Source: Verrucomicrobiota bacterium | GTDB taxonomy: Bacteria; Verrucomicrobiota; Verrucomicrobiia; Limisphaerales; CANJSG01 | Length of the DNA stretch: 64,000 nucleotides | NCBI GenBank assembly: GCA_038209745.1 | Contig: JBBQXJ010000006.1 | Coordinates: forward strand, 19,176-83,175 | Reading direction: 5' to 3' | Shown: positions 27,217 to 29,368 of the stretch, in pieces | How positions within the stretch are numbered: position 1 is the first letter of the stretch | How the letters are laid out: every line of letters begins with the position of its first letter | Position numbers and translations under genes: made by a program | The notes under the pieces: generated by a model | Database searches by the model: none | What the model was told of the DNA's origin: nothing | Seen by the model: only the letters and a program-made list of their open reading frames with translations

Positions 27217-29070
27217 TCACGCCTTCGGCCGCATCTGAGGGAAGAGGATGACGTCGCGGATGCTTTCCTGGCCGAGGAGCATCATGCAGAGGCGGTCGAT
27301 GCCGATGCCGATGCCGCCAGCGGGGGGCATGCCGTGCTCCAACGCCACGAGAAAGTCCTCGTCGAGCTTCTGCTGTTCGCCGCCGGCCTGGTGTTGGAGC
27401 GCCTGGCGCTGGGCGACGGGGTCGTTCTGCTCGGTGTAGCCGGGGGCAATTTCCTGGCCGTTGATGCAGCACTCGAAGACTTCGACGGTGGTCGGGTCGT
27501 CGGGGGTGAGCTTGGCGAGGGGGACGAGTTCCTTCGGCAGGTGGGTGACGAAGGTGGGGTTGATGAGCGTGGGCTCGATCAGCTTTTCAAAGACCGCGCC
27601 GGTGACCTCGAAGTCCTCGTAGCCGGCGGCGATGTCGCCCGAGAGTTTGAGGTCCTCGATGGCGCGGCGGCGGCGTTCGTCGGAGCTGACTTCGAACCAA
27701 TCCTGACCGGCGACTTCGCGGACGAGATCCTTGTATTTCGCGCGGCGCCAGTTGGGAGTGAGGTCGATGACCTTCTCCTGAGTCAGTTTGCTCAATGTTT
27801 CCTTTGAAGCCTCAAATTCTGATGCGACTTCAGCCAGAACCTTGTGCCAAGGCTCGATGTCTCGAACGACAATCCGTTCGGACGTTTCTTCTCGGTTGCG
27901 GATTTCATCCTTCGTGACAGCTAGGTCAACCATTCCGCGTTTCATCAAATCCAGAGCCGCTGCTGCAACTTCGTGTGCCGGCTGATTCTCAAGGGCTTTG
28001 ATCAAGGCTCTTAGATCATGAGGAACCCCTTCTGCGGCTTCACCAAACCAACTCGCAACCAACTTGGTCTTCCTCGCCTTTGCCATCTCGACAAACGTTT
28101 GACCGAATTCTCCTTCAAACTTGTGCAAAACGCGACGGATCGCGGCTTCGGTTTCGCTCTTCTTGCTGTGAGTGATTCGCAGCGTCCCCAGCACCTTCTG
28201 CGCGACGGTCGTGATAAGGGTTTCCACCGTCTCCATCATGGTCTCGTAGTCGCCGAAGGCCTCGTAGGCTTCCAGCATGGTGAACTCCGGGTTGTGCCGG
28301 CGCGAGAGGCCTTCGTTGCGGAAGTTCTTCCCGATCTCGAAGAGCTTGTCCACGCCGCCCACGAGCAGCCGCTTGTGATACAGCTCGAGCGCGATGCGGA
28401 GATAGAATTCGCAGCCGAGCGCGTTGTGCTTGGTCACGAAGGGAGCCGCCGCCGCACCGCCGGGAATGGGCTGCATGGCGGGCGTCTCCACCTCCACGTA
28501 GCCGCGGTCGTGGAAGAAGGCGCGGATCTCGTGGACGATCCTGGAACGATTGAGGAAGACGTTCTTCACGTCGTCGTTCGCCATCAGGTCGAGGTAGCGC
28601 TGGCGGTAGCGGATCTCGGTGTCGGCGAGGCCGTCCCACTTGCCCGGGGGCGGACGGAGGGCCTTGGCGAGGATTTTGAACTCGGTGACCTTGACGCTGA
28701 TCTCGCCGGCGCGGGTCTTGAAAAGAGTGCCCTGGACGCCGATGAAGTCGGCGAGGTCGAGGTGCTTGAAAATCTCGAATCCGTCCGGCTGCGATTGATC
28801 GAGGGTCTGCTTCTGCGCGTAGAGCTGGATGCGGCCGGTGGCGTCCTTCAGATCGAGGAACTGGCTCTTGCCCATGTCGCGATGGGCGGTGATGCGGCCG
28901 GCGAGGGCGACGGTCTGGCCTTCGGCGAACTCGCCCTTCTCGAACTTCTCGCGGGCTTCGCCACACCGGACGTCGGGTTTGAACTTGTTCTTGAACGGAT
29001 CGAGGCCCTTGGACTGGAGAGAGGCCAGCTTGCTGCGACGTTGTTCGATGAGCGCGTTCGTATCTTCCAT
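27217..29070 (-). CDS. lysS: Lysine--tRNA ligase (class II) with ~130-aa internal insertion
   Basis: OB fold, [58 protein letters not shown]. Confidence 0.96.
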
Positions 29071-29368
29071 AAACAGAGCGCGGACTAAACCACAGCCCGG
29101 GGAAAAGCGGAAAGCGGAAAGAGGCGCCGCGGTTGGGCGATGGCTCCGGCCGAGCCGCCTGCGGGCCAAAAGGATTTTCAGACAGGTTTCTCTGGCAAGT
29201 CCGAGACGCCCCGCCGTCGCCAGAGTGGCGGTCCCGTCGTCGGCAACTCAAACGGCGGTTTGGCGGGAGCGAGCGCCCTACCGTTCGCAGCGGAATCGCT
29301 TTCAGTCCGTCGGATCCCGCTTTCCCGCTTCCCGGTCGGCTTCCGGCTGCCTACGCTCAGCGCGTTCT

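Follow-up and report, generated by a model that had tools for sequence, protein, structure and literature searches.

The gene lysS, encoding a class II lysyl-tRNA synthetase (LysRS), occupies positions 27217..29070 on the minus strand of the window, the whole stretch of 64,000 nucleotides that was analysed. The likely start, reading MEDTNAL, lies at 29070 inside an open reading frame of 27217..29169 (minus strand) and gives a product of 617 amino acids followed by a stop codon. Pfam assigns PF00152 (E 1.9e-84) and PF01336 (E 2.4e-15) to this product, and a phmmer search against solved structures aligns it with the LysRS 3a74 (E 8.5e-134), the two being collinear from end to end save for one insert. 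An N-terminal OB-fold anticodon-binding domain (28669..28911, minus strand, residues 54-134, PF01336) precedes the first part of the class II catalytic core (28168..28620, minus strand, residues 151-301), which contains motif 2 and finishes with the strand GTLRITH. The in-frame insert follows (27778..28167, minus strand, residues 302-431), and the second part of the core (27220..27777, minus strand, residues 432-617) supplies the strand KVIDL, a helical subdomain and motif 3. The motif 2 and motif 3 residues are invariant across 108 LysRS. In the source genome (G000, 92% complete) lysS gives a single match and no match to the class I LysRS family was found. The enzyme is probably an ordinary class IIb LysRS, lysine-specific activity being presumed from this being the only LysRS gene found.

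Query residues 2-302 align with residues 3-304 of 3a74 and query residues 432-616 with residues 305-493. The 129-130 residues represent a pure insertion since the alignment breaks between residues 304 and 305 of the solved enzyme. The site is the turn of a β-hairpin after the motif 2 helix, which has about 10 residues in relatives (KDAEGKVTKT) and 130 in G000. A first-pass annotation, made from the DNA letters alone, had placed an in-frame insertion of about 130 residues at 27775-28170, within 3 nt of the limits given here, and had stated that class II LysRS normally carries a short loop at this point.

The GC content per 150-nt window is 0.49-0.55 over 27725-28249 and 0.60-0.69 on both sides. 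Values of GC1, GC2 and GC3 are 0.63, 0.37 and 0.88 in the N-terminal flank, 0.62, 0.39 and 0.52 in the insert and 0.69, 0.38 and 0.89 in the C-terminal flank; as GC1 and GC2 are unchanged across the insert the compositional anomaly is purely a third-position one. The GC3 dip of 0.35 ranks third among 1678 crude gene models of at least 300 codons in G000, where dips of 0.3 or more are rare, being reached by 5 of the 19,207 internal windows sampled. No stop interrupts the reading frame, and the lower GC, the many A/T-ending codons and the intact frame had all been read correctly in the first-pass annotation.

An independently built contig of 672 nt from run X1, which may be the source sample, spans 27558-28229, including both junctions, with 0 differences. 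Run X3, from a different study, bridges the junction at 27778, covers 27956-28159 and holds the same allele, and the earlier worry of an assembly chimera is thereby met. A look-up of expression turned up no RNA data set with this stretch. The C-terminal junction reads SKLTQ followed by EKV, with no His-Asn pair ahead of Cys, Ser or Thr, as had been remarked when intein ends were looked for. An intein was rejected on the lack of this C-terminal signature, the lack of any intein family match and a predicted helical rather than HINT fold. The module is translated as part of the enzyme and, judged by sequence, is retained, there being no splicing motifs and no second LysRS gene found.

Within G000 the only match to the insert DNA is the insert itself. 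Searches around it for target-site duplications and for terminal inverted or direct repeats gave chance-level short matches only, and comparison of its folding with shuffles (z -1.4, with 10 of 100 shuffles folding equally well) indicates that it is not palindromic. Taken on its own the insert, single copy and free of terminal repeats and of unusual DNA folding, carries no sign of a mobile-element origin. A repeat of the REP, MITE or RPE type was rejected because the insert is single copy and is not hairpin DNA. A tblastn search of G000 for donor cassettes with 86 insert variants returned nine hits, all inside the lysS insert.

Predicted fold and the search for known families

An AlphaFold2 model of the insert alone, derived with an alignment of 53 variants, has a pLDDT of 87.9 and a pTM of 0.82. 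It places helices at about residues 304-333, 336-359, 365-396 and 406-428 (23-32 residues each), with a stalk of two strands at residues 298-301 and 433-436. The insert is predicted with confidence to be a self-contained antiparallel four-helix bundle on this two-strand stalk. A model of the full-length enzyme presents the same helices, the insert blocks having pLDDT 82-96; its catalytic core is poorly predicted (mean pLDDT 67).

Pfam gave no family for the insert at E up to 1, bar a sub-threshold match to DUF4192, and among the 53 variants only two single-member hits at E ~7e-4, which we take as chance. None of the 53 variants matched PF01797 (Y1_Tnp) or showed a transposase at the lysS site, and the G000 module has no HUH motif. 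On these grounds, and on the different fold, a RAYT or Y1 transposase cassette was rejected for lysS. An AspRS-type GAD domain was likewise rejected since Pfam gives no GAD match and the model is all-helical.

The best score in a feature search of a protein atlas, 0.76, is below the useful range. Foldseek with the insert model found nothing in the PDB at E 0.001 or better, and VIA-align against 48,161 chains returned generic or designed four-helix bundles as the best matches (Z ≤11.2), a result that is uninformative for helical bundles. The structure search suggested in the first-pass annotation thus yielded no known domain. The full-length model retrieved LysRS only, with poor TM scores. A sequence search with the insert gave one fragment hit in 1.84 billion representatives; in these and 5.8 billion clusters the only relatives found are inserts of other LysRS from the same bacterial group.

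Variation at the lysS site and exchange between lineages

The comparison set comprised 149 LysRS from Limisphaerales-like Verrucomicrobiota. Inserts of at least 80 residues are present in 86 of these and short inserts in seven; the remaining 56 have none. The empty form is a 10-residue turn and occurs also in two genomes of the same genus (G002 and G005). As many relatives, the same genus included, do without the module, catalysis in this group does not depend on it. The 86 long inserts fall into 25 BLAST similarity groups, 18 of them singletons, and under single-linkage clustering one group takes 44 of the 86. A genus-level clade of 17 sequences displays 8-9 insert types together with the empty form. 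Insert sizes cluster at 100-145 residues and one predicted fold recurs across the types. Apparent inserts of 300-400 residues in some relatives, seen as long tblastn spans, were discounted, as they are additional pieces of the lysS 3′ end that lie downstream of the gene.

In-frame tblastn comparisons between insert types give E values of 1e-4 to 1e-27, whereas other types show no significant match to the remaining five frames of the G000 insert. The similarity being confined to the one frame, the types share a distant ancestry, and the idea of compensated frameshift alleles was rejected. Judged on these alignments, the G000 module is one allele of a large family of distantly related modules placed at exactly this site in Limisphaerales-like Verrucomicrobiota. 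The earlier suggestion of a variable site is upheld, with related LysS either empty or carrying quite different inserts.

Two relatives with very similar flanks carry unrelated inserts. In P0004, 8 of 483 flank residues differ and the insert has 145 residues; in P0005 the corresponding values are 18 of 483 and 114 residues. The nearest inserts, of P0006 and P0002, are 67-68% identical to that of G000 and sit on flanks of 79.9% and 78.5% identity, ranks 86 and 114 of 148. In same-genus DNA the flanks are 88-92% identical, and their four-fold sites 75-86%, compared with 35-40%, the chance level, for the inserts. A tree of the flanks requires 53 changes of insert state, against a minimum possible of 26 and 78-82 in the five shuffles listed.

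Three alternative inserts coexist at the lysS site in the X4 metagenome, where three contigs join 27737, 27750 or 27771 to 28180 with 397, 342 or 444 other letters between. In these contigs similarity to G000 stops at 28180 and resumes at 27737-27771; otherwise, breakpoints and tract lengths are known from protein differences alone. A metagenome scan for P0004 and P0005 DNA did not return these alleles, the best hit being 72% identical.

Since the P0004 insert differs wholly, the nearest inserts sit on distant flanks and X4 holds three alleles, we conclude that modules are probably exchanged by recombination. The alleles evidently replace one another between lineages, with unalignable modules on near-identical enzymes and the same module type on diverged enzymes. 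The nearest versions all belong to LysRS of the same bacterial group, which makes the donor another lysS allele and not a foreign gene. The first-pass annotation had proposed a horizontally acquired domain; movement between lineages stands, but no recognisable foreign family has come to light. Similarity to the alternative alleles resumes 0 to about 14 codons from the insert. Homologous recombination, acting via the well-conserved codons on either side, is the likely route of exchange, with a site-specific mechanism as the alternative.

Mobile DNA is also encountered here. Long perfect-stem hairpins are in frame at the same lysS codon position in L078, L079 and L195, the L195 element having 78 matches in its own genome, and L103 and L179 carry strings of GC hairpins at the site. 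The thrS gene of G029 has an in-frame insert of 216 residues (PF01797, E 3.8e-8, HUH motif), a complete hairpin-flanked Y1 (RAYT-like) transposase cassette at the corresponding variable site. Small mobile DNA may have first opened the lysS site and may still strike there. Given that close relatives carry unrelated modules, mobile hairpins or nothing, an essential enzyme holds a strain-variable cassette. We consider it likely that the hairpin turn of LysRS has been replaced by a four-helix module of 130 residues, one of many alleles swapped between lineages.

Inserts of this kind are not peculiar to lysS. At least four other synthetases of G000 (AlaRS, ThrRS, GlyRS and ValRS) carry low-GC in-frame inserts where solved homologues have none. 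The ThrRS site displays the same pattern of variability across the same 41 genomes, and it is for the ThrRS site only that variability among relatives is shown. Compared with one another, the LysRS, AlaRS, ThrRS, GlyRS and ValRS inserts of G000 have no mutual similarity (best E 0.52).

Constraint on the module and its possible roles

In the 118-residue type the insert dN/dS is 0.02-0.17 compared with 0.01-0.07 for the flanks, values that come from seven well-registered pairs with dS of 0.5-1.4, near saturation. In an alignment of type A the hydrophobic pattern is kept. Within a type the module appears, from these codon comparisons, to be kept by purifying selection.

GC3 is below that of the flanks in 57 of 62 inserts of at least 60 residues, with a mean deficit of 0.27, whatever the host GC, and low GC3 is no mark of this particular copy. 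In the 118-residue type GC3 equals that of the flanks, and lineages that have long kept one insert type have host-like values. Low GC3 may reflect recent import from an AT-richer pool of alleles, or modules that do not pair with other alleles and so escape GC-biased gene conversion. Recent import alone does not explain the composition because donors of random GC predict some GC3-richer inserts and almost none is seen.

What might the bundle do? One serious candidate, to which we would give a little short of an even chance, is that the bundle takes part in a strain-dependent interaction at the enzyme surface, so that its type matters and selection maintains the diversity. A tolerated passenger constrained only to fold harmlessly is plausible, if less so, and a lineage-specific accessory role, for example in tRNA or partner binding, is rather unlikely.

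Selection might take the form of an arms race, the bundle being a surface recognised by an antagonist or partner such as a phage protein or synthetase-binding toxin. Rare types would be favoured, so that many persist and are swapped, a situation comparable to that of flagellin or of restriction-specificity subunits; this is close to the decoy or defence idea of the first-pass annotation, which also offered a sensor as a candidate. The many deeply diverged types, each internally conserved, are consistent with such a contest, as are the swapping of types between near-identical backbones, the presence of at least three alternative alleles in one sample, and the same pattern in ThrRS of the 41 genomes and in other G000 synthetases. 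However, no antagonist is known or was found, LysRS is cytosolic and 56 of 149 relatives have the empty form, a high share that is unexpected for a needed shield. We regard an arms race as possible but doubtful.

Held with the same reserve is the proposal that mobile or filler DNA lies in a permissive loop of an essential gene, from which only a precise in-frame deletion removes it. The passenger must just fold and not poison the enzyme, and swapping would be a by-product of ordinary recombination. The dispensability of the insert, the REP/MITE-type repeats in frame at the same codon, the in-frame transposase cassette in the thrS of a relative, a low GC3 typical of mobile or young sequence, and a generic bundle without a family all agree with this. 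Set against it, dN/dS in the 118-residue type matches the low level of the essential flanks, identity within type A stays at 67% beside 79% in its flanks, and the narrow range of sizes and single predicted fold represent more order than decaying filler.

A broader scheme is that synthetase modules form a layer of strain identity, in which REP/RAYT-type DNA seeds permissive loops and frequency-dependent selection keeps the diversity as phage factors or toxins recognise the surfaces. We judge it improbable. If true, LysRS would be one locus of a multi-gene cytosolic counterpart to surface-antigen variation, and in-frame mobile DNA would regularly supply essential genes with new folded modules.

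A single horizontal event that brought in a foreign, functional domain from a distant donor of low GC, which is the main proposal of the first-pass annotation taken literally, would fit the sharp drop of GC3 at both junctions and the lack of an insert homologue elsewhere in G000. It is very unlikely, given that the site is occupied in 86 of 149 relatives, that the only relatives found are inserts of other LysRS in the same bacterial group and that no known domain was found. The reading that a single ancient insert diverged rapidly where it stands, through drift, hypermutation or compensated frameshifts and with no exchange, draws on the weak in-frame similarity that links many types and on the single-linkage group of 44. 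It is less probable again: four-fold flank sites are 75-86% identical beside inserts at chance level, a wholly different insert of another length accompanies just 8 of 483 flank differences, the other reading frames give no matches, and insert similarity runs counter to flank similarity. The composition jump, and nothing more, would be accounted for by a misjoined assembly or by intein-like self-splicing out of the mature enzyme. Either is barely credible in view of the X1 contig across both junctions, the same allele in a second study, in-frame inserts at this site in dozens of independent assemblies, and the lack of splicing residues, predicted HINT fold or intein family match.

Significance and comparison with known systems

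In the textbooks synthetases exemplify core enzymes that evolve slowly and are inherited vertically, and they are in wide use as phylogenetic markers. The one LysRS found in the present bacterium has a predicted folded module that is wholly different between nearly identical strains and is swapped in the manner of a cassette. A full-text literature search, judged by title and abstract, found no description of an insert like this in LysRS or of exchangeable inserts in the synthetases of bacteria. Were the variation under selection, some interaction aimed at the surfaces of synthetases would be indicated; otherwise, the case would show how mobile DNA can generate novel protein modules within essential genes and disperse them. 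Such sites should be masked in marker-gene alignments and recombination-free phylogenies. The constant GC3 deficit also offers a natural test case for selection versus biased gene conversion as the cause of high GC3 in GC-rich bacteria.

In common with an intein, the module is an in-frame element of about 130 residues in an essential gene with a patchy distribution. It differs in having neither splicing residues nor a HINT fold, in being predicted helical and in presumably being retained. A structural parallel may be sought in AspRS, the sister class IIb enzyme, which in bacteria has a GAD domain of about 130 residues set between motifs 2 and 3. The LysRS module is of similar length and also nested in the core between these motifs, and alignments of AspRS with G000 LysRS break off near query residues 286-330. 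The GAD domain, however, is an α/β structure with a Pfam family and is conserved across bacteria, whereas the LysRS module is predicted all-helical, has no family, varies between strains and is often absent.

The central region of flagellin (FliC) and the mosaics of penA and pbp2x have conserved, needed ends and a non-homologous, exchanged middle that is often of lower GC. The lysS gene resembles these in its non-homologous middle between conserved flanks and in the discordant histories of the two. The products of those genes are exposed or drug-targeted and the selective agent is known; LysRS is an essential cytosolic housekeeping enzyme, its insertion can be absent and no agent is known.

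Among REP-RAYT-REP cassettes, the thrS of G029 provides one verified case; at the lysS site PF01797 was matched by 0 of 53 variants. Rickettsia palindromic elements reportedly lie inside ORFs. The account of REPs by Di Nocera et al. (2013, PMC3733652) includes examples located in ORFs of Opitutus terrae, a verrucomicrobium, and others located in the tRNA synthetase genes of different species. The likeness lies in mobile DNA translated in frame at permissive surface sites of essential genes, as in some of the lysS relatives. The G000 insert differs from such elements in being three times longer, single copy and non-palindromic, and in encoding what is predicted to be a conserved, folded bundle.

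The lysS insert and its predicted fold

The lysS reading frame occupies positions 27217 to 29169 on the minus strand and encodes a class II lysyl-tRNA synthetase (LysRS) of 617 residues, counted from MEDTNAL at 29070, where the start is conserved. Pfam places the OB anticodon-binding domain (PF01336) at residues 54–134 and recognizes the class II core (PF00152) with an E-value of 1.9e-84. When aligned to solved structures, residues 2–302 correspond to 3–304 of LysRS 3a74 and residues 432–616 to 305–493. Since residues 304 and 305 of 3a74 are contiguous across this gap, the 130 residues at 302–431 (nucleotides 27778–28167, minus strand) are a pure insertion without counterpart in solved LysRS, and the in-frame insert of about 130 residues proposed in the first-pass annotation is real. 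Both junctions lie inside one 672-nucleotide contig, built independently from metagenome run X1 and showing no differences; X1 may be the source sample. The same allele is present in run X3, from a different study. Neither a second lysS nor a class I LysRS was found in the 92%-complete genome of this bacterium (G000), and so the insert-bearing enzyme must work.

The insert matches no Pfam family. Among 1.84 billion representative proteins the sole match is a 139-residue fragment with 60% identity, and in a collection of 5.8 billion clusters it is another LysRS, with 68%. The insert DNA is single copy in G000, has no flanking repeats beyond chance, and folds no better than shuffled sequences (z −1.4). 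An intein was discounted, as it had been from the outset, because the C-terminal intein residues are absent.

In the full-length AlphaFold2 model the catalytic core is poor (mean pLDDT 67) and the insert blocks are confident (pLDDT 82–96). When the insert was modelled by itself, with nine residues of flank at either end and an alignment of 53 variants from the loci, pLDDT was 87.9 and pTM 0.82. A short strand is followed by helices of 30, 24, 32 and 23 residues and a second short strand pairing with the first, giving a predicted antiparallel four-helix bundle carried by a stalk of two strands. That very different variants together produce a confident model suggests that this predicted fold is common to the insert types. 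Foldseek, advised for identifying the insert, gave no match to the model at an E-value of 0.001 or better. The best VIA-align match is the single-chain ROP bundle (Z 11.2). Only generic or designed bundles are matched and the fold therefore gives no functional inference.

The modules, or at least two types of them, are not free-drifting filler. Type A, which includes the insert of the window, has conserved hydrophobic positions in a clear pattern, and insert identity is 67% where flank identity is 79%. For a second, widespread type, of 118 residues, dN/dS is 0.02–0.17 in the insert and 0.01–0.07 in the flanks, from seven well-registered pairs with dS of 0.5–1.4; pairs mis-registered through a one-residue indel in the C-terminal flank were left out.

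Exchange of modules among related LysRS

The relatives compared are Verrucomicrobiota (Limisphaerales, Pedosphaera-like and subdivision 3). Thirty loci from 41 same-order genomes were compared: 20 have a plain turn, KDAEGKVTKT, at the site, eight have inserts of about 100–130 residues and two have short inserts. Four genomes of the window's own genus carry an insert and two do not. When the order loci are combined with the best 120 LysRS from a large protein collection, inserts of at least 80 residues occur in 86 of 149 sequences, shorter ones in seven, and 56 are empty, which bears out the suggestion of a variable site. The 86 form 25 BLAST groups, 18 of them singletons. Many groups are joined by weak in-frame similarity (E 1e-4 to 1e-27) and comparison with other reading frames gave no match; judged by these alignments, the modules are probably distant relatives of one another, not frame-shifted versions.

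Protein P0004 differs from the window's LysRS at only eight of 483 flank positions yet carries an unrelated insert of 145 residues; P0005 differs at 18 of 483, several of these clustering right beside its own, again unrelated, insert of 114 residues. Conversely, the inserts nearest that of the window (67–68%) belong to P0006 and P0002, the flanks of which, at 79.9% and 78.5% identity, rank only 86 and 114 of 148. Between genomes of the same genus the flanks are 88–92% identical in DNA (75–86% at four-fold degenerate sites) and the inserts align at 35–40%, which is chance level. A tree of 147 sequences built from flanks only requires at least 53 changes of insert state, against a possible minimum of 26 and 78–82 in the five shuffles shown; the 17-sequence, genus-level clade around the window holds eight or nine insert types and the empty form. 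Run X4, from a different study, has three contigs with flanks of at least 90% likeness to those of the window, in which 397, 342 and 444 other nucleotides replace positions 27737, 27750 and 27771, respectively, to 28180. Similarity breaks off precisely at the codon following GTL and returns at the insert end or within about 14 codons beyond. One sample thus contains alternative alleles side by side.

These comparisons indicate that modules change by exchange, not by drift. The simplest mechanism would be homologous recombination through the conserved flanks. No silent donor copies of lysS inserts were found in G000. The proposal of a foreign functional domain is not supported, since no known family includes the module and its source is the pool of lysS alleles within the same bacterial group. 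It is rather a swappable, strain-variable unit, a four-helix bundle by prediction, and the hairpin that bears it is a permissive site in an essential enzyme.

Extra lysS 3′-end fragments lie 0.4–2 kb downstream of the intact gene in many relatives (loci L039, L044, L047, L048, L052, L127, L139, L144, L171, L176, L193, L078 and L079; contigs G020:C269:8532–8879 and G037:C706:3162–3332). They comprise the last 30–125 codons, in other frames, with 56–95% identity, and look like traces left by elements integrating into the lysS 3′ end and supplying a replacement for it. In the window, lysS has no such fragment downstream. Separately, several MAG contigs with a Verrucomicrobiota-type LysRS of 60–75% identity (for example L173, L186, L187, L171, L176, L179 and L126) bear submitter labels that look wrong for them, among these Akkermansia muciniphila, Bifidobacterium, Klebsiella and Chitinophaga pinensis.

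Third-position composition

The compositional difference reported at first pass is upheld. GC content is 0.49–0.55 over the insert and 0.60–0.69 adjoining it, a drop confined to third codon positions: GC3 stands at 0.52 within the insert and at 0.88 and 0.89 on its two sides, GC1 and GC2 being unchanged. In a crude scan of G000 (genome GC 0.633, median GC3 0.82) the lysS dip ranks third among 1678 genes, and dips of at least 0.3 occur in just five of 19,207 internal windows sampled. Of 188 lysS loci 155 could be parsed and 62 of these have inserts of at least 60 residues. Insert GC3 is below flank GC3 in 57 of the 62, by more than 0.1 in 52, with an average deficit of 0.27 and a constant offset from the host value (slope 1.06, intercept −0.31, r 0.56). 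Exceptions come from the conserved 118-residue type, with GC3 the same as its flanks; this makes a force that acts on insert nucleic acid as such unlikely. Low GC3 accompanies turnover.

Two explanations fit. Modules may be imported out of an AT-richer allele pool and ameliorate slowly, or GC-biased gene conversion may be lost where a segment cannot pair with other alleles. As inserts GC3-richer than their hosts are nearly absent, random exchange between hosts that differ in GC is a poor sole cause.

Synthetase sites and mobile DNA

Synthetase genes also account for the other strongest GC3 dips inside genes of G000. Compared with solved structures, AlaRS (C3:29551–32691, minus; L033) has some 93 extra residues at 436–528 and ThrRS (C32:42333–44609, minus; L035) some 106 at 297–402, while GlyRS (C56:27119–29044, minus; L032) has three and ValRS (C18:29008–32364, plus; L034) four in-frame low-GC3 inserts. 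DnaE (C63:1594–5481, minus; L036) probably has one likewise. The inserts of the five synthetases, LysRS included, show no mutual similarity. Those of ThrRS and LysRS are uncoupled across genomes: no LysRS insert occurs in the relatives G002 and G005, which share the ThrRS type of G000, and G033 has the LysRS insert and no ThrRS insert. Another relative, G001, has two differing ThrRS N-terminal copies (C45:515–1399 and C75:943–1824), 88% and 76% identical to that of G000, either because the bin mixes strains or because a second allele exists.

Some short inserts at the lysS hairpin are palindromic. Those of 39–42 residues at L078 (1220–1336), L079 (1134–1253) and L195 (2446–2571) are long, nearly perfect DNA hairpins; those at L103 (1182–1322) and L179 (2407–2508) consist of GC-rich hairpins strung together. 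The L195 element belongs to a dispersed repeat, for which its own genome has 78 matches, and short inserts of this kind are REP/MITE-type repeats translated in frame.

At the equivalent, likewise variable site of ThrRS the same 41 genomes have from 0 to 216 extra residues. The longest insert, in a same-order relative (G029:C23, L218, 1139–1786, minus strand), is a Y1/IS200-like (RAYT-type) transposase (PF01797, E 3.8e-8, 33.9 bits against a cut-off of 23) with the HUH motif. Similar short peptide repeats on either side are, from their sequence, probably translated hairpins. None of 53 variants at the lysS site gave a transposase match. Variable sites of the lysS and thrS type may have been opened, and repeatedly hit, by REP/RAYT-like mobile DNA. 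G000 itself has an in-frame Y1_Tnp match (28 bits) in an ORF of about 1400 residues (C11:3257–8339, minus strand; L233 covers part), the C-terminal part of which resembles UDP-sugar pyrophosphorylase; the match would add a further transposase domain lying in frame.

A full-text literature search, judged by title and abstract, revealed no apparent account of such a LysRS module. The short lysS inserts resemble the Rickettsia palindromic elements, which are likewise repeats translated in frame. For Opitutus terrae, REPs inside ORFs are described in PMC3733652, as are REPs inside the synthetase genes of other species. The module is a variant of kinds already known: regions that are hypervariable and recombine, idiosyncratic insertions in synthetases, and mobile DNA lying in frame.
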